A stretch of 64,000 bases of DNA from an uncultured Ignavibacteriales bacterium (GCA_963751355.1 CAVVVS010000077.1:1-64000), one strand, 5' to 3'; numbered from the stretch's first letter, positions 10,209-64,000 are shown. Program-made: numbers and translations. Notes: generated from the sequence alone by a model not told the origin.

Positions 10209-10237
10209 AAAAAAAATCTATAGAATGATATACAAAA

Positions 10238-10280
10238 TTTCAATCGGGCAATAGAATGAAAAAGGATCTAGCTCTTTTGG
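10238..10280 (-). promoter_or_regulatory. Conserved upstream element, copy 5 (diverged), 30 nt upstream of the response regulator start
   Basis: TTTCAATCGGGCAATAGAATGAAAAAGGATCTAGCTCTTTTGG. Confidence 0.4.
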
Positions 10281-10577: not shown

Positions 10578-11480
10578 TCATTTGGTATCCAAAATAATAG
10601 GCAGCCCGTCTTTCCCGCTCCCAATAATTATAACCTTCGCATTGTTTGACTCCGCAATTTTCAAGGTTGCTTCAATCCCTTTCCAGCGAAGTAATTGTTC
10701 GCTGATGCCTGCAGCAACAATCGTCTGAAAATCGGCAATACCCTTTGCTTCAATTCGTTTCCGGTCAGCCTCTTGTTTTTCTTTAGTGAGGATGAATTCC
10801 ATCCTTTGGCTTTCCTGATCAGCTCGTTGCTTTTGCTCAATTGCCTCAGTTAGTTGTACCGGCAAAGCCACATTCCGTATGGGTGTATTCTCAATAGTAA
10901 CGCCCCGGGGAGCAACAGTTTTAGCCAGTTCTTCCTGAATAGCCGAGCCGAGCTGTTCCCTTTCGGTTGAATACAAAGCACTTGCCTGGAAACTTGCTGT
11001 TACTGAGCGGCTGATGGAACGAAACTGGGGAATGAGAATGATGGTTTCATAATCACCCCCGGCAACCGTTTTATAGACGCGAGCTGCGGAATCCGGGTTG
11101 AGCCTGTAAAGCGCACTTACTTCCAAACCGATTGTGAGACCTTCACGGGAAAGAACCTGCATAGTTTCTTTATGTTCTTTAGTCTGGATTGAATATTTTA
11201 TTACTCTTGCAAGCGGATTAACGATATTGATTCCCGAAGGTAGGGGCTTATCCGATACAATACCAAAAAAATCTACAACACCGACATGACCGGCGGGAAC
11301 CTGTGTGAAACACTGAAGCAACGCAATAATTCCGAAAAAACCCGCAACAAAAATGCTAACTTTACCAGCCGTATGAAATGCTATATTGTTTTGATTTATT
11401 TTCTTTTTTGTACCCATCCATACTAATATGGCAATTACGGCAATTAACAGTGATAAAATAAATATCATTCTAACCCCCAT
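10578..11480 (-). CDS. SPFH/band-7 (prohibitin/HflC-like) membrane protein
   Basis: N-terminal TM, SPFH core (QVPAGHVGVVDFFG...) and a C-terminal coiled-coil. Confidence 0.8.
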   Translation of the reverse strand: MGVRMIFILSLLIAVIAILVWMGTKKKINQNNIAFHTAGKVSIFVAGFFGIIALLQCFTQVPAGHVGVVDFFGIVSDKPLPSGINIVNPLARVIKYSIQTKEHKETMQVLSREGLTIGLEVSALYRLNPDSAARVYKTVAGGDYETIILIPQFRSISRSVTASFQASALYSTEREQLGSAIQEELAKTVAPRGVTIENTPIRNVALPVQLTEAIEQKQRADQESQRMEFILTKEKQEADRKRIEAKGIADFQTIVAAGISEQLLRWKGIEATLKIAESNNAKVIIIGSGKDGLPIILDTK

Positions 11481-49588: not shown

Positions 49589-50917
49589 CTACGTTTTATT
49601 GTATCTCCCTGCTCGAGGCAGATTTTCTAATTTCAAAACACCGCGCGGACAAACAGCGGCACATACTCCGCAGCCCACACATGATGAACGAATAATATTT
49701 TGTTTTCTTTGTGCGTACCATTTTATATCAATTCCCATCTCACAATATGTGGAGCAATTACCGCATGAAATACACTGATCGCCGTTTGTGGTGATCCTGA
49801 AACGGGAAAAGAATTTCTGCTGCATTCCTAAAATGGCAGCCATGGGACAGCCGAACCGGCACCAAACCCTGTTTCCTAAAATCGGATAAAATCCCACTCC
49901 CACAATGCCGGAAAACACTGCACCAATTATAAATCCGTATGCCGATGCAAAAGCTGCTGAAAGAGAACCAAGTAAGGTACCGTGTGTGGCGGAATTTAAC
50001 CAGAGTAGAGCAGTTGTAATTATAACGAATACAAGAACGGAATGAATCGACCATCTTTCAAACTTCCAGACTTTTAATGATTTGTTCGAAAGGTGCCTGA
50101 AAGGATCACCTGCGGTTTCCGCTAAGCCTCCGCACCCGCAGACCCATGAGCAGTACCATCTTTTACCGAAGAAATAAGTGAGAATGGGAGTGGCAATGAA
50201 CGTCATTGCGGCACCCCAAAATACCATGAAATATCCGAGAGCTGCGAAGTTGGACGTTAAAGTACTAATATGACTCGGAAATAAATAATTATATTTCAAA
50301 GGCCAGAAATATGTAAAATAATATTCGGGCTTATTTAATCTTTCCAGGAAAGCCGGTATTAAAAATGCAAAACCCAATTGAAAAAACATTACGGAAAAGG
50401 TTCTTATTAAATGATACTTGTTGTGCCTGTATTTGATCAACATTTTGACGCCCATTATTAAAATAGCCGTCGTATAAAAAGAACCGTACAAAAACCATTT
50501 GTCTGCAGGTTTATTTCTCAACAAGTGACTAACCGGATCAACCATTTTAATCCAGTTTTGAATAAGTCCGGGAAACCAATATAAAATTATATAAAATCCT
50601 GTGATTATTATTCCGAAGAACCAGGCAGGCATGCCGCGTGAAGTAAGGGTATTAAAAAATAATTTATCATTCTTTATTCCGGGTGGTGCTTCTTTTAATT
50701 GCTGAATGAAATAGGTAAGTGCTCCGGCGGTTATTAAACCAAAACTTAGTAGAAGAAGCAGAATGGGAAATTGTCCGGAAACACCGGTCAGACCAATCAA
50801 AAGGAAGAGTACACCGACAGCAAATATTCCCAATCCCACTTTTTTTATAAATGTTATTTTATCATTATGTTGATAAACTTGAAATGGTTGAAGTTGTATT
50901 GTATTCATATAAATCAA
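49589..50917 (-). CDS. Polytopic membrane protein with multiple 4Fe-4S ferredoxin motifs (NapH/MauN/NosR-like polyferredoxin)
   Basis: Multiple TM helices, followed by the cysteine clusters CSWVCGCGG, CISCGNCSTYC and CVGCGVCAAVCP. Confidence 0.6.
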   Translation of the reverse strand: MIYMNTIQLQPFQVYQHNDKITFIKKVGLGIFAVGVLFLLIGLTGVSGQFPILLLLLSFGLITAGALTYFIQQLKEAPPGIKNDKLFFNTLTSRGMPAWFFGIIITGFYIILYWFPGLIQNWIKMVDPVSHLLRNKPADKWFLYGSFYTTAILIMGVKMLIKYRHNKYHLIRTFSVMFFQLGFAFLIPAFLERLNKPEYYFTYFWPLKYNYLFPSHISTLTSNFAALGYFMVFWGAAMTFIATPILTYFFGKRWYCSWVCGCGGLAETAGDPFRHLSNKSLKVWKFERWSIHSVLVFVIITTALLWLNSATHGTLLGSLSAAFASAYGFIIGAVFSGIVGVGFYPILGNRVWCRFGCPMAAILGMQQKFFSRFRITTNGDQCISCGNCSTYCEMGIDIKWYAQRKQNIIRSSCVGCGVCAAVCPRGVLKLENLPRAGRYNKT

Positions 50918-51017: not shown

Positions 51018-52346
51018 TCACGAAAACATTTTCAGTAAATTAGACCTTCGCTTCAAGACAATATTCTTCCCGGGATTTTCATTATTATACTTTTCCACGA
51101 TTTCTACTTCATGCTTAGTATAAAATTCGGGATCGAAATTTGCCTCTCTTAAATTTTCCATTACATAATCGATTGACTTTTTCTGCAAAATCCATCTTTC
51201 GCAAACTTTATGACGCAGTCTCATTCCAAAGACATTAAATCCTTTAACATGCCGGCTTAATGAATCAAAAACTATCCGGATGCATTTTTTCCCGCCTGGA
51301 TGTTCCCAGTAAAATGATTCTTCACCTTCCCGCGGAACGTTACTAACAAATCCGTAGGTTTGATACTCGATATCGAGAAACTTTGCCGAGTTGTACCACA
51401 CACCGCGTTCGTATTTTGTTTTGTTACCGAGAATATTCTGTGCTAAAACTTCGCCCTGCATTTTTCCTGTGTACCAGAGTTGTTCTATTGCATGTCTTTC
51501 GCGTTCGGGATAGATAATTTCCGCACAATCTCCTGCAGAGTAAACATCCGGAATATTCGTTTCCAGATACTCATTAACCAATATACCGCGGTTGATTTTT
51601 ATATTTGTATTTTTAACCAGATCAATATTTGGATGAACACCGGGTGTAAGTCCCACAAACTGACAGGGAATTTCTTCACCGTTTTCAGTAATTACGGATT
51701 TTACCCTGCCGTTTTCTCCGGGAAGAATTTCCTTTAATTGGGTATTTAATTTTAAATCGAAGCCGTGTTCCAGTATATGTCTGCTAACAATTACAGCTTC
51801 TTCCTGCGGCAGAATATTATTCCAATAATAATTTTCTCTGACCAAAAATGTAATATGTATGTTGCGCGAGTGGAGCATTTCTGCCAATTCAATTCCAATT
51901 AAACCGCCGCCCACGATTACTGCATGAGTAATGTTTTTAGTATTATCCTCCAGCAAATCCAGATCCGGTTTTGAATATAAACCTTGAACACCCGGCAGAT
52001 CCTGTCCTTTCCATCCGAATTTATTTGTTTGTGAACCCGTTGCAACCACAAGTTTATCGTAAGTAATTGAAGTGTTGTTATCCAGATTTATTTTTTTTGA
52101 ACCGGTATCTATTGAAGTAACAAATGCGTGTACAAGTTTAATTCTATTCTTTTGCCAGAACCAGTCTTCATACGGTTTAATGTTTTCAAATTTCATGTGC
52201 CCCATGTAAACATACATTAGAGCAGTTCTCGAAAAAAAGTGTTCTGTTTCAGAAGAGATAACGGTAATTTTCATATCGCTTTTTTTTCGGACGTGGCGGG
52301 CACAGGTTATCCCTGTTATCCCGTTCCCGATTATTACAAGATGCAT
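51018..52346 (-). CDS. FAD/NAD(P)-dependent pyridine nucleotide-disulfide family oxidoreductase
   Basis: N-terminal GxGxxG (VIIGNGITG), a second Rossmann motif (VIVGGGLIGIE) and an extra C-terminal domain. Confidence 0.7.
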   Translation of the reverse strand: MHLVIIGNGITGITCARHVRKKSDMKITVISSETEHFFSRTALMYVYMGHMKFENIKPYEDWFWQKNRIKLVHAFVTSIDTGSKKINLDNNTSITYDKLVVATGSQTNKFGWKGQDLPGVQGLYSKPDLDLLEDNTKNITHAVIVGGGLIGIELAEMLHSRNIHITFLVRENYYWNNILPQEEAVIVSRHILEHGFDLKLNTQLKEILPGENGRVKSVITENGEEIPCQFVGLTPGVHPNIDLVKNTNIKINRGILVNEYLETNIPDVYSAGDCAEIIYPERERHAIEQLWYTGKMQGEVLAQNILGNKTKYERGVWYNSAKFLDIEYQTYGFVSNVPREGEESFYWEHPGGKKCIRIVFDSLSRHVKGFNVFGMRLRHKVCERWILQKKSIDYVMENLREANFDPEFYTKHEVEIVEKYNNENPGKNIVLKRRSNLLKMFS

Positions 52347-52803: not shown

Positions 52804-54888
52804 GTGCGGCAATTGACTTTCAAACGCATAGTTCCCTGGTTCCTTTTCATAATTGTTTTTATCCTGCTGTACTACACTTCTTATCCTTCATTGGGGTGGT
52901 GGGACAGCGGCGCTTATGCTTCCAACGCATTCAATTTTAGTATTCCTTCTCCTGGCGGATCGATTCTTTATGTTTTACTGGGAAGAGTCTTTACAATGCT
53001 TTTCTTTTTTTTACCTGCAATTAAGGCGATAACACTTGTTAGTATTATTTCGACAGCCTTGGCATCTGTTTTCATGTACTACACATTTCTGATGATTTTT
53101 GATAATTTACAATTGAAAACTTCTGATTCGCTAAAGGTTATTTCATCATTTTTCACTGCTCTTGCACTCCCTTTTTTATACAGTATTTGGATTGAGTCGA
53201 ACGTATCTAGAGTTTATGTTCTAGGATTATTAATAACGAGTATTCTAGTTTACTGTTCAATAAAGATCTGGTTCTCTGAAAATGAAAAAGAGAAAGTAAG
53301 ACTAATCTTTTTAACAGCATTTTTAATCGGCATTGATTTTTCAGCTCACCGTTTAAATACTCCGTTTATTCCGGTTGTTTTACTTCTTTTAATTTTTTCT
53401 CTAAGAAAAGAATTAACAAGCATTAGATTTTGGATTATTCTTGCGGGCATGTATTTGGCAGGTTTATCGCTTAATCTATTTATACTGATTCGCTCTCCGC
53501 TACATCCGCCGGTTTCAATGGACGATGTACAAAATTTTTCGCAGTTGTTTGCTTGGATAAATATGAAACGTTTCGGGCAGTCCAACTTCTCTATACTATT
53601 TGATCGAAGGGCTCCGTTTTGGAGTTACCAGATTGATTATATGTACCTTCGTTATTTCGGTTGGAATTTTTTGGGTACCAACGGGGGCGGAATATTTGGT
53701 TCATTGTACCTATCATATCTTCCGTTTCTTTTGGGAATAATCGGGTTTGTATACAGCTTAATAAAAAGATTTAAACTCTGGATTTTAATTTTTATCACTT
53801 TTTTCTTCTTTTCATTCGGATTAGTTTTCTATTCCAATATTCAAGAGGGATTTCATCATATAAGAGAAATTGACCGTTTGTTTATCCCATCGTTTTTTGT
53901 TTTTATGCTCTGGGTGGGATTAGGACTTTACTTTTTGTTTATAATGATTAAAGTCGTATTACAGAAAGTAAATTTTAAAAGAAGTACAGCTTTCATAATT
54001 ACAATTGTATTCGGATTTACTATTCTTCCTTTAAATCTTATTTCAACAAATTGGTGGAAATGTAACAGACACGGCTATTATTTCCCTTATGATTTTGCAT
54101 ATAACCTTTTGATTAGCTGCAAAAAAAATGCGGTTCTTTTTACAAACGGAGATAACGATACTTTTCCTTTGTGGTGCCTTCAAAGCGTTGATGATGTTCG
54201 TACCGATATAGCCGTAATTAACGTAGGATTAATGAATACAAATTTTTATGTCGAACAGCTGCAAAGGAAATACAAACTGTTTCCGGAAAATTCTGATATA
54301 TTAAATCCTGAAGAATTTAGACCCTCACTTCTCGATTCAGCTATGGAAATTAAAATTTATGGGAAAGATTCAGTTGGACAAAAAAAATATCGGGATACTT
54401 TAAGAGTTCAATTTAACGGAAGGAGTTTCGGGAAAAAGCATGGATTACTTCCGCAGGATAAAGCTTTAATTACTTTTCTGGAAAATAACGGCTGGAAGAA
54501 ACCTGTTTATTTCGCATCGACGGTGTACCAGGGAAATCTGGTTGGTTTATCGAATTACATTGGGACGGCCGGGATGGTCGGAAAATTAACACCTGTTAAA
54601 GGAGATTCAATTTTAGCAGTGCAATTGGAAGACAATCTGCTAAAAAAATATCAATATAGAAATTTCAATAATCCTAATGTTTATGTTGATAGAGTGACGA
54701 AATCTTTATTTAATAATTATAGAAATGAATTTGTGCTTTTAGCAAGATATTATTTACAAAAAGGTAACAAAGAAGATGCATTAAAAGTACTTGATATAAT
54801 GCAAGCTAAACTGCCTGATTGGATATTTACTAAAGAGCAAAATCGATATATAGATAATTTTAAGAAATCATTTATCAATAAAAAATAA
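52804..54888 (+). CDS. DUF2723-family GT-C-like membrane protein (PMT/ArnT-like)
   Basis: N-terminal WWDSGAYASNAF...PSPGGSILY block, which resembles the DUF2723 WD.GE...HPPGYPL motif. About 11 TM helices plus a soluble C-terminus. Confidence 0.5.
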   Translation: MRQLTFKRIVPWFLFIIVFILLYYTSYPSLGWWDSGAYASNAFNFSIPSPGGSILYVLLGRVFTMLFFFLPAIKAITLVSIISTALASVFMYYTFLMIFDNLQLKTSDSLKVISSFFTALALPFLYSIWIESNVSRVYVLGLLITSILVYCSIKIWFSENEKEKVRLIFLTAFLIGIDFSAHRLNTPFIPVVLLLLIFSLRKELTSIRFWIILAGMYLAGLSLNLFILIRSPLHPPVSMDDVQNFSQLFAWINMKRFGQSNFSILFDRRAPFWSYQIDYMYLRYFGWNFLGTNGGGIFGSLYLSYLPFLLGIIGFVYSLIKRFKLWILIFITFFFFSFGLVFYSNIQEGFHHIREIDRLFIPSFFVFMLWVGLGLYFLFIMIKVVLQKVNFKRSTAFIITIVFGFTILPLNLISTNWWKCNRHGYYFPYDFAYNLLISCKKNAVLFTNGDNDTFPLWCLQSVDDVRTDIAVINVGLMNTNFYVEQLQRKYKLFPENSDILNPEEFRPSLLDSAMEIKIYGKDSVGQKKYRDTLRVQFNGRSFGKKHGLLPQDKALITFLENNGWKKPVYFASTVYQGNLVGLSNYIGTAGMVGKLTPVKGDSILAVQLEDNLLKKYQYRNFNNPNVYVDRVTKSLFNNYRNEFVLLARYYLQKGNKEDALKVLDIMQAKLPDWIFTKEQNRYIDNFKKSFINKK

Positions 54889-54890
54889 TC

Positions 54891-56075
54891 TCATTTTCTT
54901 ATAATTCGATACCTTAACCTTTGCATCCAAACAGGCGGTTCTTTAGAAGCAATATCAATTCCTACTGCAATGACTAAAACCGCACCGCGAACAACCAATT
55001 GTATCCAATTAGGTAAACTCGTATAATCCATTCCCTGTATTACGGTAGCCATCACCAGTCCGCCAAGAAAAGTACCTAGAATAGTTCCTCTTCCGCCCAT
55101 CAGACTTGTCCCGCCGATTACAACTGCAGCTATCGCATAAAGCTCATAAAACTCGCCGGCATTTTTTGTTGAGCCCTGATTCTGCGCCATCCAGAGAACG
55201 CCTGCGATGCCTGCCAATAAACCCATTATAGCAAATGATGCAACGATGTTTCTTTCTACTTTTATTCCGGATAATCTTGCAGCTTCCGTATTTCCGCCTA
55301 TTGCATAAATGCGCCTTCCGAGTTTTGTGTACTTTGCAGCAATGAAAAGCAAAACAAACACGATAACCATTATTAATGTTTGATAAGGAATTCCTCTGTA
55401 TTGTCCGACTTTATAGACAAAGCCCAAAATTATCAAAGAAAGAAGAGCAATTTTTAATAAGGTAACCGGCTGGGAATCGGTTGGAAGATTTAAACTTTTC
55501 TTTTTTATTTTTCCCCTGATGATAAATACAGCCACAACAGCACACGAAACAATTCCAATTATCCATCCCCAGGAAGGGGAGATATAATTAAAACCTAAAG
55601 AAGTTACCCAGCTTTTATCGGGTATCCGAGGATCGTATGCACTTACCTGCTGCGTGATTCCGCGGAATATAAATAAACCGCCAAGTGTAACTATGAATGA
55701 GGGAATTCGGAAATAAGCAGTAAGTATTCCCTGGAAAAATCCTAGAAACGTTCCGATTGCAAGAGCAATTGGAACAGCAATATAACCGGGCAGTCCTAGA
55801 CCGAAATCAGTATTCATCATTAATGCGCATGAAGCAGCAACCAGTCCAAGTAATGAGCCGACCGAAAGGTCAATATTCCCGGATATTATAATCAATGTCA
55901 TTCCGCCGGCAAGAATAGTCCAGCTGACCATATCCCTGCTGAGTTTGGCGATGCTTTCACCGCTGAAATAAAAACCGCCTACTTCCAGGCGGAAGAATAT
56001 CCACATTACAATTAATATCATGAACATGGAAAGCATACGGAAATTAATTTTAACACCTTTATTTATTTGCTTCAT
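54891..56075 (-). CDS. xylH: Sugar ABC transporter permease (XylH/RbsC family)
   Basis: About 10 TM helices in operon with the ATPase. The stop and the ATPase start overlap (ATGA). Confidence 0.6.
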   Translation of the reverse strand: MKQINKGVKINFRMLSMFMILIVMWIFFRLEVGGFYFSGESIAKLSRDMVSWTILAGGMTLIIISGNIDLSVGSLLGLVAASCALMMNTDFGLGLPGYIAVPIALAIGTFLGFFQGILTAYFRIPSFIVTLGGLFIFRGITQQVSAYDPRIPDKSWVTSLGFNYISPSWGWIIGIVSCAVVAVFIIRGKIKKKSLNLPTDSQPVTLLKIALLSLIILGFVYKVGQYRGIPYQTLIMVIVFVLLFIAAKYTKLGRRIYAIGGNTEAARLSGIKVERNIVASFAIMGLLAGIAGVLWMAQNQGSTKNAGEFYELYAIAAVVIGGTSLMGGRGTILGTFLGGLVMATVIQGMDYTSLPNWIQLVVRGAVLVIAVGIDIASKEPPVWMQRLRYRIIRK

Positions 56076-57598
56076 GTAGCAATCTCCATAATTTTTTCCT
56101 GTGTTGCTTCTTCCCCGGAAAATTCTCCGCTGATTTTTCCTCGTCTCAGTACAATTATTCTGTCACAAATTCCCAGTATTTCCGGTAATTCGCTGGAAAC
56201 AGCAATGATACATACTCCTTGTTTTTTCAATTCGTTAATTAGCTGATAAATCTCAACTTTAGCCCCGACGTCAATTCCCCTGGTCGGTTCATCAAGAAAT
56301 AAAATTTTTGGTTTGTTCAACAGCCATTTACCCAAAACTATCTTTTGCTGATTACCGCCGGATAAAGTTTCCGAAAGTACATTTAAGGAAACCGCGCGAA
56401 TTGAAAGTTGATCGAATATTTCTTTGCACTCCTTATATTCTTTATGTGTATCGATGAAACCTTTATTTTCGAAATAATCGAGTTTAACCATTGACAAATT
56501 TTCTAAAATAGGCAGACCAAGTACCAGACCCATGTTTTTGCGGTCTTCCGGTACAAGCGCAATACCGGACCTAATCGCATCCGGAGGATACTTCAACTTG
56601 CTCTTTTTATTCTCTAAAAAAATTTCACCCGATTTCATCATCCCCGGCGGATCACCAAAAATAGATAATAACAATTCCGATCTGCCTGCTCCCATTAATC
56701 CTGAAATACCAAGTACTTCGCCTTCTTTTGCAGAAAATGAAACATCATCCAGAATCAATCGACCTTTAATGACGGGATCTTCAACAGTTAAATTTTTTAC
56801 CTCTAAAACGACTTTACCGGGAGAGGATTTGATACGGGGGTACATATCTGTTAATTCTCTGCCGACCATATATTTAATTAAATCATGTTTGTTTAAATTA
56901 TTAACGTCATCGGTCGCAATACTTTTACCATCGCGTAATACGGTTACTCTATCCGCAATTTGAAAAACTTCATCCAGTTTGTGAGAGATGTATATCATAG
57001 CAGTGCCGCTGTCACGAAGCTTTTTCATTATGGAAAATAAAAGTTCTGTCTCCGTTTCCGAAAGGGCAGCAGTTGGTTCATCAAGGACGAGTATGCTGCT
57101 TTTTTTTCGAAGTGCTTTGGCAATTTCCACAAGCTGCTGCTCGCCAATCCCCAGGTTACTTACTTCTTCTTTTACATCAATATTAAATCCATACTTATCA
57201 ACAAGTGACTGCGACGAGCCGTAAATAAAATTCCAATCGATTAAACCAAACTGAGATGGCTCATCTCCCAAATAAATATTTTCGGCTGCTGATAAATAGT
57301 TAACCAACGCCAATTCCTGGTGGATTACAGAAATACCGGCTTTTTCCGAATCAAGAACATTTTTAAAAACAGATTCTTCTCCGTTTTGAAATATTTTTCC
57401 TGAATATTGACCGTGCGGATAAACGCCTCCGAGAATTTTCATAAGAGTCGATTTGCCTGCACCGTTTTCTCCAACCAGTGCGTGTATCTCATTAGGTAAA
57501 ACAGAGAAAGATACTTTATCAAGTGCTCGAACCCCGGGGAATTCTTTAGAGATATCCTTCATTTCAAGAAGGGGAAGATTTGAGGGAGACTCTAACAT
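56072..57598 (-). CDS. xylG: Sugar ABC transporter ATP-binding protein (duplicated ABC domains, XylG/RbsA family)
   Basis: Two sets of Walker A/LSGG motifs (GENGAGKST / LSGGNQQK). Confidence 0.7.
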   Translation of the reverse strand: MLESPSNLPLLEMKDISKEFPGVRALDKVSFSVLPNEIHALVGENGAGKSTLMKILGGVYPHGQYSGKIFQNGEESVFKNVLDSEKAGISVIHQELALVNYLSAAENIYLGDEPSQFGLIDWNFIYGSSQSLVDKYGFNIDVKEEVSNLGIGEQQLVEIAKALRKKSSILVLDEPTAALSETETELLFSIMKKLRDSGTAMIYISHKLDEVFQIADRVTVLRDGKSIATDDVNNLNKHDLIKYMVGRELTDMYPRIKSSPGKVVLEVKNLTVEDPVIKGRLILDDVSFSAKEGEVLGISGLMGAGRSELLLSIFGDPPGMMKSGEIFLENKKSKLKYPPDAIRSGIALVPEDRKNMGLVLGLPILENLSMVKLDYFENKGFIDTHKEYKECKEIFDQLSIRAVSLNVLSETLSGGNQQKIVLGKWLLNKPKILFLDEPTRGIDVGAKVEIYQLINELKKQGVCIIAVSSELPEILGICDRIIVLRRGKISGEFSGEEATQEKIMEIAT

Positions 57599-57627
57599 TT
57601 ATAATTCCAGTTCATATTAGTTATGGC

Positions 57628-58755
57628 TCAATGGTTTGTACTATCCGGATTAACCTCCGGCCACTGATCTTTGGGAATATTTGCATACACGTTTTTTAAC
57701 TTATGCCAACCATCTATAACAACAGTATTAATCAGGTTTTCTTTATTCACCAAAATTGGGGTAAGAAAGATTGAGGGCACTTCCTTGTAACCGTTATTTA
57801 TGTGCTGTACTTTATAACCAAGAGATTTTATAATTTCTTCCGGCTTTTCACCCTTTGCCATTCTTACAATGATTTCGGCAGAAGTTTCGGCAAGTTTTTT
57901 GATTGGTTTATAAACCGTAACAGTTTGAGTCCCTTCGGCAATTCTTTGACAAGCAGTTAACTCGGCATCCTGTCCGGATACCGCAACTTTTCCCTGAAGA
58001 TTTTCAGCCATGAGTGCGGCTACAACACCGCCTGCGGTTGCATCATTTGAGGCTACAATTGCATCAACTCTTTTTCCTTCGGCTTTAAATTTTGTAAGAA
58101 GATTACTTATTTTTCGCCGTGCTTCTTCTCTATCCCAATTATCCAAGAAAGGATCTGCTAAAATATTAATCTTTTTACCAGTTTTTTGTTCGTACTCTTT
58201 TATCGCTCGCAATTGACCTTGCCTCAAAAGTTTTGCATTGTTATCCGAGGAAGCACCTCCCAACAAAATATAATTTCCTTGCGGAACCTTTTGCAGAATT
58301 CCTTCTGCCTGTAGATAACCAACTTTTTCATTGTCGAAAGTAACATATACATCTAAGTCACAATCTACTATCAGGCGATCGTATGCAAGAACCGGTACTT
58401 TATTTTCGTGTGCGATTTTAATAATTCGTGCGGCTGTTTTGAGATTTTTCGGAATTACTACAAGTCCGTTTACACCCTGCGTTATAAAGTTGCTTGCCTG
58501 GTCGTTTTGCCGGTTTTGATCGCCGTCTGCAACAGCTCTCAATACTTCCGCATCTAAAGAGTTAGCTTTATTGGTAAAGTACGTTTCATCCCTTTTCCAT
58601 CTATCCAGGTTAAAGGTTTCCATTAAAAGACCGATTTTAACAGAATACTTTTTCTTAGTTTGCTCTTTTGAATTTTTATTACTGCAGTGGAAATTTACGA
58701 GTCCGATAATACCGGTTAATACAACCAGGATTAAACTTATTTTGAGTTTACGCAA
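57628..58755 (-). CDS. xylF: D-xylose-type ABC transporter substrate-binding lipoprotein
   Basis: Strong block similarity to XylF (YDRLI.D.D.D.YV.FDNEKVG, DAIVASNDATAGG, SGQDAEL, GTQTVTVYKPI). Confidence 0.65.
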   Translation of the reverse strand: MRKLKISLILVVLTGIIGLVNFHCSNKNSKEQTKKKYSVKIGLLMETFNLDRWKRDETYFTNKANSLDAEVLRAVADGDQNRQNDQASNFITQGVNGLVVIPKNLKTAARIIKIAHENKVPVLAYDRLIVDCDLDVYVTFDNEKVGYLQAEGILQKVPQGNYILLGGASSDNNAKLLRQGQLRAIKEYEQKTGKKINILADPFLDNWDREEARRKISNLLTKFKAEGKRVDAIVASNDATAGGVVAALMAENLQGKVAVSGQDAELTACQRIAEGTQTVTVYKPIKKLAETSAEIIVRMAKGEKPEEIIKSLGYKVQHINNGYKEVPSIFLTPILVNKENLINTVVIDGWHKLKNVYANIPKDQWPEVNPDSTNH

Positions 58756-58915
58756 AACATACCTCCGGTGCGGGTGCTTAAATAATATTGGTTACAAATT
58801 TATAAAAAAGTGTATAAAATACAATATTTAATTTAGGAACCTGTGTTTGCAGCACTTTGGATATAATATGTGATGATTAAGGACTCAAGATTAAAAATCA
58901 TTTACTCTAAAAAGC

Positions 58916-60076
58916 TTAGTAAACACAAGAACGTGCCTGATCCGCAAAAGCTTTAACCAGTTCAACATCGGCATCAAAAAAATGATCCGAAGGAGAAAGA
59001 ATAAAACCCCCTCCTTCACCGGCTTCCTCAAAATATTTGTTCACGGCTTTTCGTGTTTCATCCGGCGTACAATCATTAAAGAAGTGATATTGATCGAATC
59101 CGCCGATCATGCATACCCGGTCTCCGATTCTTTTTTTTGCCTCCTTCAGATTCGTGTCGCCACCCATTTCTGGCGGTGTGAATGTTTCCATTGCATCGGG
59201 CCCCATATCAGCGAGCTTTTCAAGAATCGGCATCATTCCGCCGCATGTATGATAAACAACTTTTTGTCCGGCTTCGTGAGCAATATTAATTAATTCGGAA
59301 TCATAAGGAGCAACAAACTCTTCGAAAATAGCGGGTGAGATAACTGTTGTAGAAGCATCGCCGCCTCCATGTTCAATTATATCGTATTTAGCTCCTTTAA
59401 GCGATTGTATAAAAATTTTTTTCTTTTCAAAAAGAATTTTTAATAATGAGTGAACCCATTCCGGATCTTCAAAAGTCGCCATTATTAAATTTTCAATTCC
59501 ATAAAGCACTGCGGCATCCTGCCAGCAGCCCGACTGTCCGTAAACATCAAAGAAACTAATAAAGCCGCGAATTAAACCTCTATCACCATATGCTTCAGCC
59601 TGTTTGTTGATTTCTTGTACATCACATTTCGGAGATATAGCGTATTCGGCAATTATATCAATGTCAGTTTTGTTCTTAATTAATCTTTCCGAAACCCAGG
59701 ATGTGTATTCATTACTTTGCAGACTCATGTTAAGAGTTTTTTTCGGAGTGATAAAATTATAACGAATGGTTTCATAAGTATCGCTCGGAACTTGTTCGGA
59801 TTTTATTCTCCAGTTGTCCGATGATATTCTCCTGGCTTCAAGGTATCCTGGTACATGATCGGGATCATAATATTCACCTTTACTTTCATCCGGTTTATAA
59901 GCCTGTATCCAGTTGATGGGATCCAAACCAAAGTAATCAAAAAATTCCTGGTTGGAAATTCCGTTCATATATTTTTTTAGAAAGTAGGGCATAACATGAT
60001 GTGTTGTGACAGGAAGCCTGTCGGGAATTTCGTTGTTTAAAACTGCTAAAAATCTTTGCTTTGATGTCATTGACAT
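58916..60076 (-). CDS. Uroporphyrinogen-decarboxylase (URO-D) family protein, a putative corrinoid-dependent methyltransferase (MtaA/MtvB-like)
   Basis: N-terminal block TSKQRFLAVLNNEIPDRLPV. Length of about 385 aa. Confidence 0.55.
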   Translation of the reverse strand: MSMTSKQRFLAVLNNEIPDRLPVTTHHVMPYFLKKYMNGISNQEFFDYFGLDPINWIQAYKPDESKGEYYDPDHVPGYLEARRISSDNWRIKSEQVPSDTYETIRYNFITPKKTLNMSLQSNEYTSWVSERLIKNKTDIDIIAEYAISPKCDVQEINKQAEAYGDRGLIRGFISFFDVYGQSGCWQDAAVLYGIENLIMATFEDPEWVHSLLKILFEKKKIFIQSLKGAKYDIIEHGGGDASTTVISPAIFEEFVAPYDSELINIAHEAGQKVVYHTCGGMMPILEKLADMGPDAMETFTPPEMGGDTNLKEAKKRIGDRVCMIGGFDQYHFFNDCTPDETRKAVNKYFEEAGEGGGFILSPSDHFFDADVELVKAFADQARSCVY

Positions 60077-60091
60077 TTGATTCTCTCTGTT

Positions 60092-60634
60092 TTAGTCTAT
60101 AACCGGGATTCGTTTTATATTCGGATCTGTCCAGATATCTTTTTCATCGATACTTTTCGAAGAAAATTCAGAAACAACCGCACCGTTGTCGCCTGCTTGA
60201 AACCAGTGTAATGTGTTGGGGGGAATAGTAAACTGCTCACCCGGTTTCAGTATTTTTTCATTCCACACAGTGAAGTAATTCTTGTACTTTGGCGGAATTT
60301 CGGCTTTGGGATTATCACATGGTTTTCCTTGTATATAAAGATAAACTTCCCCCCACCTGCATCTGAATGTTTCTTGTTTACCAATGTTTGTACTATTAAT
60401 AGGAGGATGTCTATGCTCGGGACATGTTTGCCGCGGAAAGAGCACTAATTCCTTTGCGCAGTATTTATCATTATTTTCATATATAACAAGCTGCAATCCC
60501 ATTGTTTCTATATCATCTAAACCGAAATCGGCAACCTCCAAATTTTCTTTTTCTTTGGCGGTTAAAATAATATTAGCTTTCTTCAAGTACTCTGCCGTTC
60601 GTTCTCTAATTTTTTTAACATCTTCTAATTTCAT
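60092..60634 (-). CDS. Cupin-fold D-lyxose/D-mannose-type sugar isomerase
   Basis: Motifs KELVLFPRQTCPEHRHPP, GEVYLYIQG and FTIPPNTLHWFQAG are typical of D-lyxose ketol-isomerase. Confidence 0.55.
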   Translation of the reverse strand: MKLEDVKKIRERTAEYLKKANIILTAKEKENLEVADFGLDDIETMGLQLVIYENNDKYCAKELVLFPRQTCPEHRHPPINSTNIGKQETFRCRWGEVYLYIQGKPCDNPKAEIPPKYKNYFTVWNEKILKPGEQFTIPPNTLHWFQAGDNGAVVSEFSSKSIDEKDIWTDPNIKRIPVID

Positions 60635-60659
60635 TTTATCCTCCTTAAAATCTCTATAC

Positions 60660-61079
60660 TTAAAAAATAACTCCGGATTGAAGAATTACATTACAAAAAG
60701 GTGTAGCTTCACCAGTTCTTAAAAACATCATGTTATTGCTTTCTCTAGTCAGTATTTTAAAATCATCGTGAGGAATTTTTTTTAATTCCAAATCCGGGAA
60801 TAATTCTCTTACCTTTAAAAAAATAAAGTTACTCTTTTCTTCGAGCTCATTCGCAACGGTTACCTCTTCTATTTCCAGTTCATTAATCAGGGCTTTTAAT
60901 GTATCAATCAGTTTAGGAATTCCGGGCACAAGAGAAATGTCGACAACCTCAGAACCGAAAGGGAGGGGAAAACCACAATCGCATACTACAAGTTTATCAG
61001 TATGTCCGAGCCTTGCAAGCATGCCAGATAATTTATGATTTAATATACCGTTCTTTTTCATAACACTTCCTTTTTCCAA
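60660..61079 (-). CDS. rbsD: D-ribose pyranase (RbsD/FucU family)
   Basis: ILNHKLSGMLARLGHTDKLVVCDCGFPLP matches the RbsD N-terminal block. Confidence 0.7.
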   Translation of the reverse strand: MEKGSVMKKNGILNHKLSGMLARLGHTDKLVVCDCGFPLPFGSEVVDISLVPGIPKLIDTLKALINELEIEEVTVANELEEKSNFIFLKVRELFPDLELKKIPHDDFKILTRESNNMMFLRTGEATPFCNVILQSGVIF

Positions 61080-62002
61080 TTAGTGTTAGTATTAAATAAA
61101 TTATTAATCTCTTCTCTGAACGGAGCGGAAGATTGTGCTCCTAATTTTCTAACTGAGATTGCAGCCGCAGCATTAGCAAATTTTACAGCCTTTATGATAT
61201 CCATTCCCTCCGAAAGTCCAACTGCAAGTGCTCCGTTGAAAACGTCTCCTGCAGCGGTAGTATCAACCGCTTCCGTTTTATACGAAGGAATAAAATTAGA
61301 AAAATTTCGATTTGCTACATAAGCTCCTTTTTCGCCCAATGTAATAATTACAGAGTCTATCCCTTTCTCTAATAAAAAATGAGCAGCTTCTATAATTGAA
61401 TTGTCATTCGTTATTTTTAATCCCGTTAAAATTTCAGTTTCTGTTTCATTTGGGGTAATAACGGAAATGTTTTTTAAAAAATCGTCGCTTAGTTTTTGAG
61501 CAGGTGCCGGGTTGAAAATGATTTTAACATTTGCTTGATTCGCAATCTTTGCTGCATACTCAACCGTTGCAACCGGTATTTCCAATTGCATTAAAAGTAT
61601 TTCGGAACTTAAAATATCTGCCTTAGTATTTTCAATATGTTGGGGCATCAATTGATAATTAGCACCTGGAGCTACTGCTATACTATTTTCACCGGAAGAT
61701 CCGACAAAAATTAATGCAACTCCGGAAGGAGCAGAATCGTTTTTTACAATATTGTCAATATTGATTTCTTCATCGAGAAAATTTTTTAATGCTTTCTCAC
61801 CGAACATATCATTCCCGACACAAGTTATAAAATTTACACTACCTCCCGCTCTGGCAGCGGCTACTGCCTGGTTAGCACCCTTGCCGCCCGCGGCAGAAAA
61901 AAATTCTCCCCCGATAATTGTTTCGCCCGGTTTCGGGATTTTTAATGTTTTAACTACCATATCGGTATTTGAACTACCGATAACCGTAATTTTTTTCGAC
62001 AT
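61058..62002 (-). CDS. rbsK: Ribokinase (PfkB family)
   Basis: GGKGANQAVAAARAG and DTTAAGDVFNGALAV motifs. Confidence 0.75.
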   Translation of the reverse strand: MSKKITVIGSSNTDMVVKTLKIPKPGETIIGGEFFSAAGGKGANQAVAAARAGGSVNFITCVGNDMFGEKALKNFLDEEINIDNIVKNDSAPSGVALIFVGSSGENSIAVAPGANYQLMPQHIENTKADILSSEILLMQLEIPVATVEYAAKIANQANVKIIFNPAPAQKLSDDFLKNISVITPNETETEILTGLKITNDNSIIEAAHFLLEKGIDSVIITLGEKGAYVANRNFSNFIPSYKTEAVDTTAAGDVFNGALAVGLSEGMDIIKAVKFANAAAAISVRKLGAQSSAPFREEINNLFNTNTNWKKEVL

Positions 62003-62017
62003 AATAAACTTGTGCTG

Positions 62018-62737
62018 TTATTTTACTTTTTTGCGTTTGTAACAAAATTCTATATCACACAAAGAGCATTCATAATCTTCTTTTTTCACATCCGGTCCCA
62101 ATCCTATAAAGCCGCTGATTGATTTTATCGGTATCATCAGTGCACTTTCGGTTAGTTTTATCCCGCAAAAATTTTCCGGTAAAAAAGAAAAAAGTTTGTG
62201 CTGTTCTTTAACCGACCATCCGCAATACCCCGGGCTGTATCTGTTGGTAATATTCCATTTTTTATCTTTTACTTCTTCAAGCAAGTAATTTTCAAGAATA
62301 TCACCGGCTCGTTCCACTATCTCCGAACCAATGGTATCAATTACATATCCCTTCAGCATTTCTCCCTGGGTCATTAATTGGCTAGACCATTCCGTAATTT
62401 TAGGTCCGGCTGTCGCAGTAAAAATTGCAATTGTAATTGATTTTCGAAGTCTTCTTGTAATTATAGGAGCAGTTTCAAAGTTGGTGGAACAACATGATAA
62501 AAACCGTTTTTCTGCTTTGAAATTTTCCGGGGGGAGAATAGTAAATCCTGCATGGATATCGGCATAATCAGGAATAAAATCTATTATCGAATCAATCTCT
62601 TCATAAACAGGCATTGGAGCCTGATCCGGTTTATATCCCATTGCCTTAACAACATCTTCAGGTGTAAGCGAGATTTCATTTAAACTAATATTGTATTCGT
62701 AGGTATTTTTTTTCACTGAATCTTTCCCGGTTAACAT
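62018..62737 (-). CDS. Stand-alone MetH-activation-domain-like protein (PF02965-like), a putative corrinoid reactivation/SAM-binding component
   Basis: NRYSPGYCGW...LFSFL...GIKLTESALMIPIKSISGFIGLG resembles the RYSFGYPACP...LTESFAMWPAASVSG block of the methionine synthase reactivation domain. Confidence 0.45.
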   Translation of the reverse strand: MLTGKDSVKKNTYEYNISLNEISLTPEDVVKAMGYKPDQAPMPVYEEIDSIIDFIPDYADIHAGFTILPPENFKAEKRFLSCCSTNFETAPIITRRLRKSITIAIFTATAGPKITEWSSQLMTQGEMLKGYVIDTIGSEIVERAGDILENYLLEEVKDKKWNITNRYSPGYCGWSVKEQHKLFSFLPENFCGIKLTESALMIPIKSISGFIGLGPDVKKEDYECSLCDIEFCYKRKKVK

Positions 62738-62873
62738 TTTACTCCCGGATTAATATGTATCATTTAGCTAATGACCGATATTACAAAAATAATCTTTATC
62801 TTATTCTTAATCATATTAAACTCAAGTAAGATTTGGATTAAGAGCAAGTTTAAGATTGTCTATTCAAGATGTC

Positions 62874-63545
62874 TTAAGAAGCATACACAGAGTTAATATA
62901 TTCCAAAGCACCCTGAGGATTGGATGAGTATGCATTCGCTCCTATCTTTTCAGCAAAATCCTGGCTTATCGGCGCACCCCCAATAATTATATTTACTTCA
63001 GGATGCACTTCCTTTATTCGTTTCACGATTGCCGCCATATTCTGCATTGTGGTGGTTAGCAGGGCACTCATACCTATAAACTTAAGTGAATTTTCTTCAA
63101 TTGCTTTTATGAATTTATCTGCGCTAACATCCACTCCGAGATCAATAACATTCCATCCGCCTCCTTCAATTACCATACCTACTAACTTTTTACCTATGTC
63201 GTGAAGATCCCCGGTGACGGTACCCAAGGCGATGGATTCTTTATGTTTTATATTGCCGGACTGAAAATGCGGTCTCAGCAGAATCATTGCACTGCTCATT
63301 GCTTTTGCTGAAATAAGTACGTCGGGCACAAATATTATATTATCTCTAAACTTTTCACCGACTACCTTCATTCCTTTCATCAACCCGTTATTTAAAATCT
63401 CATTTGGCATGATTCCGATATCAAGAGCTTTTTGAGTCAATTCCACTGCACCATCCTGCCCTTTCATGTCCGGAGGGAAAGGGGATTGCAGGTTTACCTT
63501 ACCGCGCTCTATACATTCTGCTAATTTTGATAATAATTCTTCCAT
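62874..63545 (-). CDS. Corrinoid (cobalamin-binding) protein, MtaC/MtbC-like
   Basis: B12-binding cap followed by a Rossmann-like domain with the DxHxxG motif (GDLHDIGKKLV). Confidence 0.8.
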   Translation of the reverse strand: MEELLSKLAECIERGKVNLQSPFPPDMKGQDGAVELTQKALDIGIMPNEILNNGLMKGMKVVGEKFRDNIIFVPDVLISAKAMSSAMILLRPHFQSGNIKHKESIALGTVTGDLHDIGKKLVGMVIEGGGWNVIDLGVDVSADKFIKAIEENSLKFIGMSALLTTTMQNMAAIVKRIKEVHPEVNIIIGGAPISQDFAEKIGANAYSSNPQGALEYINSVYAS

Positions 63546-63809
63546 TAAATATTAACCTTTATTACCCGAGTTTAAATTAAAGAATTTTGCATCGTTTTAT
63601 GTTAACGTTAACATAAAAATAGCTCCAAAAAATAATTTGTGCAAATTAATTGTAAAAAGTTTTCATTAAATCTGCATACACTAACTTCAATTAAGCCGGT
63701 AATTTTAATTTTGCCCCAAAAATAAATGTAAATAACATTCAATTTTGGAAACATTTAGAAGATTTTTATAAAAGATTAATTATTTAAAAAAATAAGTTTG
63801 AAACTTATT

Positions 63810-64000
63810 TTAAATTTTTGCTTGGGTATTTTTTCTTTTCCAATATAAATAAACCGGAACTCCGATTCCAAGTAAAATGATTCCTGCAATTGCTTGTTCA
63901 GGTTTCTCTATGAGTGTGTTTATTACAAACCAAACAGCTGTTAGAATAAAAAATAATGGGACAAAAGGATATCCTGGAGTTTTATATTTGCGATCAGCTC
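63810..64000 (-). CDS. C-terminal fragment of a membrane protein (possibly a transporter) that extends beyond the window end
   Basis: Open minus-strand frame ending ...ILLGIGVPVYLYWKRKNTQAKI* at 63810. Confidence 0.3.
   Translation of the reverse strand, partial: ADRKYKTPGYPFVPLFFILTAVWFVINTLIEKPEQAIAGIILLGIGVPVYLYWKRKNTQAKI

Follow-up and report, generated by a model that had tools for sequence, protein, structure and literature searches.

Gene content and control region of the operon

The window analysed here, a 64,000-nucleotide stretch of DNA from an uncultured Ignavibacteriales bacterium, carries nine closely packed genes on the minus strand, running from 63545 to 54891 (Table 1). The seven genes that the first-pass annotation had named are all found where it placed them on that strand, and their identities are backed by profile searches.

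Table 1. Features of the sugar and methyl-transfer operon, listed in the direction of transcription
Feature	Position	Strand	Match or motif
Promoter-like site: TTTACA and TATTTT, 16 nt apart, a short way upstream of the palindrome	63629..63656	-	
Perfect 24-nt palindrome, candidate LacI-family operator	63595..63618		halves TTTTATGTTAAC and GTTAACATAAAA, core TGTTAACGTTAACA
Corrinoid (cobalamin-binding) methyl-carrier protein, 223 aa	62874..63545	-	PF02310, PF02607, His-on motif GDLHDIG
TM0269/MetH-activation-domain-like protein, 239 aa	62018..62737	-	PF02965, PDB 1j6r
Ribokinase (PfkB family), 314 aa	61058..62002	-	TIGR02152, NF008353
RbsD-type D-ribose pyranase, 139 aa	60660..61079	-	PF05025, NF008761
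Cupin D-lyxose/D-mannose-family isomerase, 180 aa	60092..60634	-	7nzo, 2y0o
Divergent URO-D-superfamily protein (subfamily s0), 386 aa, candidate MT-I	58916..60076	-	PF01208
xylF-like sugar-binding protein of ABC importer	57628..58755	-	PF13407 (175 bits)
xylG/gguA-like ATPase of ABC importer	56072..57598	-	NF010069
gguB-like permease of ABC importer, last operon gene	54891..56075	-	PF02653, NF040906
Converging gene after the permease gene	52804-54888	+	

In the order of transcription, the genes are separated by 136 and 15 nt, an overlap, 25, 15, 160 and 29 nt, and finally a 4-nt overlap. The overlap of rbsK and rbsD is 22 nt if rbsD starts at a TTG codon, and an ATGA if it starts at the methionine where its Pfam match begins; the latter, an ATG at 61061 that overlaps the rbsK stop codon, is the probable start. 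No terminator-like site was found on the minus strand in the 136- and 160-nt gaps, and the RNA of these two larger gaps folds no better than shuffled sequence (z = -0.5 and +0.5). A gene that ends at 63810, upstream of the operon, looks like the C-terminal end of an amino-acid permease (PF13906 below its cut-off, E = 1e-4) and is followed by a 265-nt promoter and operator region. The promoter-like site in this region is a consensus match only (9/12) and is no evidence of function. The palindrome has two 12-nt arms that are 100% complementary with no spacer, and it is the single exact site in the 64 kb.

Since the spacing is tight, the gaps are free of terminator-like sites, and a single promoter-like site and operator lie upstream, the corrinoid module and the sugar genes are best regarded as one unit. 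This agrees with the earlier claim of one operon, which had been argued from the spacing and the rbsD/rbsK overlap. A LacI-type palindrome, TGTTAnCGnTAACA, lies ahead of the cassette here, and 12 other loci have it too, with up to 2 mismatches and 20-320 nt before the first gene of the cassette. In these loci, which belong to Ignavibacteriota, Calditrichota, Neomarinimicrobiota and MAGs labelled Bacteroidetes, it stands ahead of the corrinoid gene or of an FGGY or PfkB gene that heads the cassette.

Both RbsK and RbsD pass the equivalog cut-offs for ribose. The ribokinase scored 377.6 bits with TIGR02152 (cut-off 299.65) and 371.9 bits with NF008353 (cut-off 341), while RbsD scored 135.9 bits with NF008761 (cut-off 93) and 123.6 bits with PF05025, the match starting from residue 7. 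The isomerase is 68% identical over 176 residues to the D-lyxose isomerase of Thermofilum (7nzo, E = 9e-83), an enzyme reported to have high specificity for D-lyxose (PMC8378251), and also matches 2y0o (E = 1e-60). By these matches, the isomerase suggests an aldose of D-lyxose or D-mannose configuration, and the kinase and pyranase suggest ribose. The importer is related to the xylose system, but its binding protein and ATPase fall short of the xylose equivalogs: the former scored 335.5 bits with the xylF model TIGR02634 (cut-off 389.55) and the latter 669.4 bits with the xylG model NF010069 (cut-off 699). The permease scored 281.6 bits with NF040906, below its cut-off. Compared with rbs/xyl pentose operons, the locus shares RbsD and RbsK above equivalog cut-offs and a xylFGH/ggu-like importer, but it has four extra genes (isomerase, URO-D, corrinoid and activation), and its binding protein and ATPase stay below the xylose cut-offs. 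No glycosidase or aromatic-catabolism gene was found in the window operon. We found no indication that the substrates are O-methyl pentoses or sugars derived from 4-O-methyl-glucuronoxylan, as had been suggested.

The methyl-transfer proteins

The presence of a corrinoid protein with a DxHxxG motif and of a PF02965-like protein was confirmed by profile searches. The corrinoid protein matched PF02310 (85.6 bits) and PF02607 (64.2 bits), and its DxHxxG motif reads GDLHDIG; its best NCBIfam models are MtgC, pyl_corrinoid, MtbC and MtaC, all below equivalog cut-offs. The activation protein scored 35.7 bits with PF02965 (cut-off 25), over the C-terminal part of the domain only, and matches T. maritima TM0269 (PDB 1j6r, E = 2e-8). 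Among 26 orthologues of this protein, N-R-x-S-P-G-Y-C172-x-W and C224-x2-C227-x4-C232 are conserved in at least 95%, and N-R-Y-S-P-G-Y is kept in at least 80-95%. R-x-x-x-G-Y is the SAM-binding motif of the MetH activation module. By homology, the activation protein is a candidate for SAM-dependent reductive reactivation of the corrinoid protein, and reactivation is predicted to be MetH-like (PF02965).

The URO-D-family protein belongs to the URO-D/MtaA-type TIM-barrel superfamily and matches PF01208 with 89 bits in its C-terminal half only. Of the proteins with solved structures, the methyltransferase MtaA is nearest to it in sequence and is also the only one matched by a profile of its family. 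The protein reached the cut-off of no curated model, scoring 61.7 with PRK06252 (cut-off 244), 60.2 with MtaA_Meth (cut-off 400) and 56.2 with the mtaA_cmuA model TIGR01463 (cut-off 235.4). As PF01208 is matched and homologues are labelled 'uroporphyrinogen decarboxylase' in some sources, the protein could be taken for a genuine HemE of haem synthesis, an identity that would have overturned the original proposal. That identity is effectively refuted. The score with the hemE model TIGR01464 is 16.5 bits (E = 0.003) against a cut-off of 302.95, the PF01208 match is half-length, the neighbours are sugar and corrinoid genes with no haem genes nearby, and the N-terminus reads DRLPVTTHHVMPYF at the position of the Arg-rich motif that HemE carries there. 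These comparisons place the protein in the methyltransferase branch of the superfamily, not with HemE.

The Zn site of MtaA, which we take to be His-x-Cys ... Cys, is retained in part. H276-T-C278 aligns with H-I-C of 4ay7, and the H-x-C and Glu positions are kept in alignment with the metal-site region of MtaA, but S-P-S-D364-H365 stands where the last Cys would be, so that the full MtaA site is not present; in related loci, a single paralogue subfamily, s4, keeps S-G-C-D. No other gene of the operon is methyltransferase-like, and the window holds no second URO-D gene. Since the corrinoid protein and its reactivator would otherwise have no partner, the URO-D protein is the candidate for that role.

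As the first-pass annotation had stated, the window lacks a pterin-binding MT-II: PF00809 was found neither among the 19 window genes scanned nor in seven Pfam-annotated related loci. A RACE/RamA-type ATP-dependent activator was likewise absent from these 19 genes and seven loci, and the PF02965 protein occupies its place. The expectation that MT-II and RACE genes lie just past position 64000 found no support, as the upstream gene is permease-like, a 265-nt regulatory gap intervenes, and neither occurs in the seven related loci. A homologue of the homocysteine module PF02574 was not found in the window; such modules occur in 7/81 related loci and also in a further cluster, L092. A homocysteine-type module (PF02574) would be a likelier methyl acceptor than a pterin-type MT-II.

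Recurrence of the gene arrangement in other species

In a one-genome-per-species collection, at least 555 stretches from several phyla encode a relative of the URO-D protein, and family members are 64-78% identical across phyla. Linkage was counted over 81 non-duplicate species loci with a URO-D orthologue. Near the orthologue, we found the lyxose isomerase in 34/81, the corrinoid protein in 33/81, the activation protein in 25/81 and a PfkB kinase in 19/81; sugar genes are present in 62/81. The order corrinoid, activation, PfkB kinase, (RbsD), lyxose isomerase, URO-D is seen in about 20 species. Glycoside hydrolases, sugar transporters and extra URO-D paralogues are also recurrent neighbours and, in the Pfam-annotated loci, the paralogues lie beside GH31, GH2-malectin, GH38, GH3, GH78-like and GH116 genes. 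The pairing of methyl-transfer and sugar genes, whose conservation the first-pass annotation had proposed to check, thus extends to dozens of species of several phyla, which argues that the arrangement is beyond chance.

In 23 of the 41 loci with at least 5 kb on each side, neither a corrinoid nor an activation gene lies within 10 kb, so corrinoid dependence may not extend to the whole family. It is conceivable, if quite improbable, that the URO-D protein is a metal-dependent TIM-barrel sugar enzyme, an isomerase, epimerase or decarboxylase feeding the lyxose isomerase, and that the corrinoid and activation genes serve a separate function and share the operon in some lineages. In that case, about 18 other well-covered loci, like the window, would have corrinoid and activation proteins without a methyltransferase partner, and the corrinoid gene directly adjoins the URO-D orthologue in five loci, within about 100 nt in four (L015, L023, L028, L029) and about 130 nt in the fifth (L033). 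Moreover, the sequence profiles match MtaA and not HemE, and the known non-HemE members of the URO-D fold are, to our knowledge, all methyltransferases.

Behind a regulator with GntR and sugar-binding domains, the L092 cluster has three URO-D genes and genes for a corrinoid protein and an activation protein (58% and 45% identical to those of the window), PF02574 and CobW. This gene set suggests that the module works as a MetH-like relay.

Proposed corrinoid-dependent O-demethylation of an imported sugar

As the genes form one unit, the gene order recurs, and the URO-D protein is not HemE, the most economical reading is that the operon encodes a corrinoid-dependent O-demethylase for an imported methylated sugar, to which we give a probability of about one half. 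This retains the core of the original proposal, but neither the MT-II and RACE beyond the window nor the substrates it had named.

From the gene identities established by homology, the operon-like layout, the conserved linkage and the conserved operator, we infer the chemical steps, the nature of the substrate and the acceptor as follows. The xylFGH-like ABC system would import an O-methylated aldose. The URO-D protein, as a Zn-dependent MT-I, would bind the sugar, and corrinoid Co(I) would attack the methyl ether to give methyl-Co(III) and the free sugar. The free aldose could then be converted by the D-lyxose-type isomerase and/or RbsD and be phosphorylated by the ribokinase. The corrinoid protein would hand the methyl group to an acceptor encoded outside the operon, most likely a PF02574 homocysteine-type methyltransferase or the cell's own MetH, yielding methionine. 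After oxidation to Co(II), the TM0269-like protein would restore the cofactor by SAM-dependent reductive methylation, as in methionine synthase. A LacI-type repressor acting on the palindrome would make the whole unit sugar-inducible.

Several points count against sugar O-demethylation, among them the lack of a methyl-acceptor module in the window and the 23 loci with no corrinoid or activation gene close by. An aliphatic methyl ether is a chemically more demanding target for Co(I) than the aryl methyl ethers of known URO-D-type O-demethylases, and the URO-D protein has Asp-His in place of the Cys that is the third Zn ligand in MtaA. The isomerase indicates D-lyxose, while the kinase and pyranase indicate D-ribose, and we know of neither as a common methylated sugar. 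Identity as high as 64-78% across phyla would also be in keeping with a universal substrate.

The O-demethylases of acetogens and Desulfitobacterium, composed of MT-I, a corrinoid protein, a pterin-type MT-II and RACE, resemble the present system in the URO-D-fold MT-I candidate, the MtaC-type DxHxxG protein and the presumed chemistry of Co(I) attack on a methyl ether. Of their components, the corrinoid protein is found here, whereas the PF00809 MT-II and RACE are not; the activation protein is of MetH type, and acetogenesis is not known from the phyla that host the system. With sugar uptake and catabolism as the context, the ether would be aliphatic, that of a sugar, rather than aromatic as in those enzymes. 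The donor could nevertheless be an aryl methyl ether, with methoxylated plant phenolic glycosides (flavonoid, lignan or lignin-carbohydrate fragments) being demethylated while neighbouring glycoside hydrolases remove the glycone and the sugar genes consume the freed sugars. The characterised URO-D-type O-demethylases all use phenyl methyl ethers (PMC10418091, PMC3727330), and the GH78-type rhamnosidase and GH3 neighbours are typical of rutinoside deglycosylation. However, we consider an aryl donor unlikely: the window operon has a monosaccharide-type binding protein and neither a glycosidase nor an aromatic-catabolism gene, the D-lyxose isomerase is the tightest partner, the GH38, GH31, GH63-like and malectin-GH2 neighbours are non-flavonoid enzymes, and 0/81 orthologue loci carry an acetogen label.

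MetH, including the split T. maritima form (TM0268 and TM0269), shares with the operon a cobalamin module and a separate activation protein (PF02965) with R-x-x-x-G-Y, and a PF02574 module joins in L092 and the 7/81 related loci. The differences are that a URO-D-family methyl-donor module replaces the pterin-binding domain, that a conserved Cys-x2-Cys-x4-Cys tail is added to the activation protein, and that the homocysteine module is absent from the window. The system could also be mainly a MetH-like, methionine-forming relay, whose donor would be a thioether or another small methyl donor, e.g. the methylthio-sugar 5-methylthioribose, with the sugar part handled by the ribose genes. In line with this are the RbsD and RbsK scores above the ribose cut-offs, the occurrence of PF02574, the H-x-C motif, which is typical of thiol-handling members, and the proposed role of related URO-D clusters in methyl-sulfur or methyl-selenide metabolism (PMC10418091). 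Such a relay is nonetheless rather improbable, as the uptake system and glycoside hydrolases indicate an external carbohydrate, the thiol-type Zn site lacks its last Cys, methionine-salvage genes were not found nearby, and the lyxose isomerase would be left without a role.

Two other bacterial systems are comparable in part with the sugar O-demethylase proposed here. In type 1 mlp clusters, genes for MtaA-like URO-D proteins stand together with one for a corrinoid protein, and a folate methyltransferase is missing (Kountz and Balskus, PMC10418091). They need Mlp2, Mlp3 and a Ram/RACE activase and occur mostly in Firmicutes, and their description mentions neither sugars nor the activation domain (PMC10418091). 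In contrast, the present operon has a single URO-D gene of a probably different subfamily, no RACE protein, a PF02965 activator and sugar genes. The glycine betaine/methionine synthase system MtgBCD of marine bacteria is a similar modular relay, with substrate demethylation and methionine synthesis sharing one corrinoid protein (PMC12478193), but there the donor enzyme belongs to the MttB family and acts on glycine betaine, where the window has a URO-D protein in a sugar operon.

In the literature, we found no prior report of corrinoid-dependent, oxygen-free sugar O-demethylation. The sole sugar O-demethylase that we found described is the O2-requiring P450 of marine Bacteroidetes acting on 6-O-methyl-D-galactose (PMC6292453). 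Its role, removal of a sugar methyl ether for catabolism, is like the one proposed here, but the enzyme is unrelated, working by O2-dependent hydroxylation with release of formaldehyde, whereas the system in the window would run oxygen-free. If this is true, methyl groups would be stripped from sugars without oxygen and the methyl group would be conserved.

Organisation of the operon

Between 63545 and 54891, the minus strand has nine genes, which profile searches identified as encoding a corrinoid protein, a protein with a methionine-synthase activation domain (the activation protein), sugar enzymes, a URO-D-family protein and an ABC importer. By these profile matches and the structure matches (7nzo, 1j6r), the gene identities, order and coordinates of the first-pass annotation are correct. 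Its view that the genes form one operon is also borne out. The intergenic distances are small (136, 15, an overlap, 25, 15, 160 and 29 nt and a 4-nt overlap), no terminator-like site was predicted in the 136-nt and 160-nt gaps, where the RNA folds no better than shuffled sequences, and a promoter-like site and a palindrome precede the first gene. A terminator-like hairpin with a T-rich tail occurs within the 3' coding end of the URO-D gene, some 70 nt short of the stop codon; as the conserved segment GGGFILSPSDHFF is encoded there, the hairpin is probably a by-product of coding. Rfam families, the cobalamin riboswitch included, gave no match in 54500-64000 up to E = 1. Convergent with the end of the operon is a gene for a 694-aa membrane protein; further on, a 4Fe-4S dicluster membrane protein gene lies beside one for a pyridine-nucleotide-disulphide oxidoreductase.

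A spacer of 265 nt separates the corrinoid gene from the upstream gene ending at 63810, the last 62 residues of which resemble the C-terminus of an amino-acid permease (PF13906, E = 1e-4, below cut-off). This spacer contains the promoter-like site and, just downstream of it, a perfect palindrome of 24 nt, built around the core TGTTAACGTTAACA and present in exact copy once in the whole 64-kb window. Palindromes of this size, A/T-rich and with CG at the centre, are typical of LacI-family operators. Judged by its sequence, TGTTAnCGnTAACA would be a LacI-type palindrome and a candidate operator of the corrinoid/sugar cassette. With up to two mismatches, the motif recurs in 12 other distinct loci from several phyla, at 20-320 nt upstream of the first cassette gene, which is either the corrinoid gene or an FGGY/PfkB gene. 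The 1.38 Mb searched contains 28 matches, nearly all at cassette-upstream positions, compared with about 4 expected by chance on our own estimate, which assumes equal base frequencies. We looked for a LacI-type regulator gene beside the palindrome and cassette and found none; two candidates, in the related loci L040 and L061, were rejected as secreted sugar-binding proteins.

Features of the window and of related loci (labels beginning with L)
Feature	Location	Strand	Description
Corrinoid protein	62874-63545	minus	223 aa; PF02607 and PF02310; motif GDLHDIG; best NCBIfam models MtgC/MtbC/MtaC
Activation protein	62018-62737	minus	239 aa; PF02965, 35.7 bits, C-terminal part of methionine-synthase activation domain
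Ribokinase		minus	TIGR02152, 377.6 bits, above cut-off
RbsD pyranase		minus	NF008761, above cut-off
Cupin		minus	180 aa; 68% identical to Thermofilum D-lyxose isomerase 7nzo, E = 9e-83
URO-D-family protein	58916-60076	minus	386 aa; PF01208, 89 bits, C-terminal half only
Binding protein	57628-58755	minus	xylose/multiple-sugar ABC importer relative, just below equivalog cut-off
ATPase		minus	as for the binding protein
Permease		minus	as for the binding protein
Palindrome	63595-63618		candidate operator
Terminator-like hairpin	58988-59018	minus	
Membrane protein	52804-54888	plus	TMEM260-like O-mannosyltransferase domain (PF11028)
Pyridine-nucleotide-disulphide oxidoreductase	51018-52346	minus	
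4Fe-4S dicluster membrane protein	49589-50917	minus	
GH100 invertase	45566-46978	minus	PF12899, 658 bits
Palindrome in related loci	L001 8021; L003 2066; L007 7569; L008 7134; L020 6314; L028 5483; L029 9170; L040 4990; L061 6265; L069 4311; L070 6404 and 7776		
Recurrent gene order	L007, L008, L010, L013, L014, L017, L019, L022, L026, L027, L059, L088, L089		examples
L092 operon	2541-10714		GntR/sugar-binding-domain regulator, URO-D, URO-D, corrinoid, URO-D + thioredoxin-like fusion, PF02574, CobW GTPase, activation protein
PhyH genes	L005 11198-12019; L087 11202-12011; L028 4641-5504; L029 8328-9191		
Further URO-D subfamilies	L001 11185-19411; L087 5154-14283; L088 16739-17776; L089 13899-18719		

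The URO-D-family protein, the activator and the methyl acceptor

The first-pass annotation had named a true HemE identity of the URO-D protein as grounds against its reading. The hemE model gives 16.5 bits where the cut-off is 303, so this identity is rejected and we regard it as next to impossible. Another possibility is that the protein is no methyltransferase at all, which we think improbable. Its best models are those of MtaA/CmuA methyltransferases, but the scores reach about one quarter of their cut-offs; among solved structures, MtaA of Methanosarcina mazei is the sole match of the family profile (E = 1e-6). H276-T-C278 lines up with H-I-C of MtaA, and every family member keeps E297 and D364-H365, the latter at the place of the last MtaA cysteine; going by the MtaA structure, these positions would be metal ligands. 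The protein differs from MtaA/MtbA in model scores and in the last Zn ligand. In the predicted structure, an extra five-strand beta segment (about residues 84-130) stands in the N-terminal half of the barrel, where paralogue subfamilies are gapped in the alignment, and may serve as a lid or docking surface. A uronate decarboxylase yielding D-lyxose was also considered and rejected; it is chemically implausible for the URO-D fold and leaves the corrinoid genes unexplained.

The activation protein matches TM0269 of T. maritima (1j6r, E = 2e-8), the separate reactivation partner of the split methionine synthase of that organism, and it is the constant partner of the corrinoid protein in related loci. 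N-R-x-S-P-G-Y-C-x-W, which includes the SAM-binding motif R-x-x-x-G-Y of MetH, is kept in 26 orthologues. Four cysteines (C172, C224, C227 and C232) are conserved in at least 95% of these 26, and the C-terminal C-x2-C-x4-C tail is absent from TM0269. This pattern would suggest a metal or Fe-S site, possibly for electron input.

The first-pass annotation had also considered that a pterin-type acceptor methyltransferase (MT-II) and a RACE activator might lie beyond 64000. This is unsupported, as the gene ending at 63810 is permease-like and none of the seven Pfam-annotated loci has PF00809 or RACE. A different acceptor is suggested by L092, an operon on a 7.3-Mb contig found through its activation-protein homologue, whose corrinoid protein is 58% identical to that of the window. 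Judged by gene content, it is a putative complete methionine-synthase-like relay with URO-D proteins in place of the MetH pterin module. No second URO-D, PF02574 or other partner gene was found in the window; as PF02574 is lacking, the acceptor has to be either the MetH of the cell or the product of a gene located elsewhere. A PF02574 homocysteine S-methyltransferase gene is near the URO-D orthologue in 7 of 81 related loci. It has also to be considered that the methyl donor is a thioether such as methylthioribose and that methionine synthesis is the main purpose of the system, an explanation we find unlikely.

Conservation and spread in related genomes

ORFs called in related loci were scored for similarity to the proteins of the window and to families of recurrent neighbours. 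Among 81 non-duplicate loci with a URO-D orthologue, neighbours include lyxose isomerase (34), corrinoid protein (33), activation protein (25) and ribokinase-like PfkB (19), and the isomerase is immediately upstream of the orthologue in 26 of the 74 loci with enough sequence. Conservation of the arrangement in related genomes, which the first-pass annotation had proposed to check, extends over several phyla: the order corrinoid, activation, PfkB, (RbsD), isomerase, URO-D recurs in Ignavibacteriota, Calditrichota and MAGs labelled Bacteroidetes. Corrinoid and URO-D genes are at most about 100 nt apart in L015, L023, L028 and L029, and about 130 nt apart in L033.

Sugar genes are present in 62 of the 81 loci. 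Other recurrent neighbours are GH38, GH2 with malectin domain, GH31, GH3, GH78-like and GH116 hydrolases, SSF and MFS transporters and FGGY kinase. At least five further URO-D subfamilies occur in related loci, often adjoining a glycoside hydrolase gene (GH31, GH2-malectin, GH38, GH3 or GH78-like). All score best to MtaA/CmuA models, and the full MtaA-type H-x-C ... C motif is kept by one alone, subfamily s4. The pairing with hydrolases gives the impression that each released sugar has its own methyltransferase. Where loci are larger, some paralogues lie several kb away from the corrinoid gene, the product of which they presumably share. That aryl methyl ethers of phenolic glycosides are the methyl donor is a minority possibility, though somewhat less remote to us than a thioether; aryl methyl ether demethylation is the established chemistry of the URO-D fold.

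The orthologue is flanked by 5 kb or more on either side in 41 loci. In 23 of them, neither a corrinoid nor an activation gene lies within 10 kb, and the orthologue adjoins MFS or SSF transporters or lyxose isomerase; the corrinoid protein may be encoded elsewhere in these genomes. Loci from Aminicenantes and Eubacteriales MAGs (L037, L047, L053, L063, L044) likewise have no nearby corrinoid gene, and the neighbours of their orthologue are L-rhamnose isomerase, a double class II aldolase, aldehyde:ferredoxin oxidoreductase, an NHL-repeat protein and an SSF transporter. A PhyH-family Fe(II)/2-oxoglutarate dioxygenase gene adjoins the orthologue or is divergent from the corrinoid gene in 10 of the 81 loci; its product could be an alternative demethylase that depends on O2, or else hydroxylate the same substrate.

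A search of word-indexed proteins gave 3436 homologues at E <= 1e-10, and identity is 69% or higher for each of the best 120. In a scan of one genome per species, at least 555 stretches encode a relative, a family size sufficient for ecological relevance. The MAGs behind the best 80 of these (64-78% identical) are labelled Ignavibacteriota, Melioribacteraceae, Bacteroidota, Calditrichota, Aminicenantes/Acidobacteriota, Anaerolineae, Phycisphaerae, Verrucomicrobia, Eubacteriales, Neomarinimicrobiota and others; the top hits are from Melioribacter and Ignavibacteriales MAGs, on which the affiliation of the window rests. Clustering at 50% identity leaves the clade as essentially a single cluster: in such a library just one full-length representative exceeds 50% (P0246, 61%), and the sister clades reach 36-45%.

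Proposed sugar O-demethylation and known systems

Sugars whose methyl ethers block ordinary sugar enzymes occur in the wall polysaccharides of algae and plants, in methylated N-glycans and in polysaccharides of bacteria. Methylated sugars are considered recalcitrant in the gut and in sea water, and the sole sugar O-demethylase that we found in the literature, for 6-O-methyl-galactose, is an O2-dependent P450 (PMC6292453). We argue, with a probability of about one half, that the operon serves corrinoid-dependent O-demethylation of an imported methylated sugar, all the chemistry of which we infer, next to the homology, layout, linkage and shared operator that we observe. A methylated aldose would be taken up and, through the action of the URO-D protein, lose its methyl group to Co(I) of the corrinoid protein. 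Catabolism of the demethylated sugar would begin with the isomerase and/or RbsD and ribokinase. A thiol acceptor, probably homocysteine, would receive the methyl group, and the activation protein would rescue the oxidised cofactor with SAM.

Hints of the substrate diverge. Going by the isomerase, whose Thermofilum relative 7nzo is reported to have high specificity for D-lyxose (PMC8378251), the sugar would be configured like D-lyxose or D-mannose; going by the kinase and pyranase, it would be ribose. GH38, GH31, GH63-like and malectin-GH2 enzymes of related loci would suit methylated mannose- or glucose-containing glycans.

The proposed system has the working principle of three- and four-component corrinoid methyltransferases and a modular logic similar to that of MtgBCD (PMC12478193). 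In contrast to acetogen O-demethylases, it has neither a pterin MT-II nor RACE, and unlike MetH it has neither a pterin nor a homocysteine module in the window. It is also distinct from type 1 mlp clusters (PMC10418091), as it lacks RACE and has a single, different URO-D protein. No report of corrinoid-dependent sugar demethylation was found in the full-text library searched, which leaves out most subscription-journal papers, so that prior work is possible. We tentatively suggest that this URO-D-fold family, whose sister subfamilies often lie beside a glycoside hydrolase, could be the first O2-independent sugar O-demethylase. Its members would share a corrinoid protein and a MetH-type reactivator, pass methyl groups to homocysteine and be at work where sediments, peat and soils are anoxic.

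If true, this would explain the use of methylated sugars by anaerobes and facultative anaerobes, make methylated glycans a source of both carbon and methionine, and add to the vitamin B12 demand in sediment and soil communities. It would also add aliphatic ethers to the aryl ethers on which URO-D-type methyltransferases act, and provide new demethylating and methylating biocatalysts. The system is widespread and conserved, and gives the question of methylated sugar use without O2 an answer open to direct test.

The window, from an Ignavibacteria-like genome, also encodes a full-length GH100 alkaline/neutral invertase, an enzyme family best known from plants and cyanobacteria.
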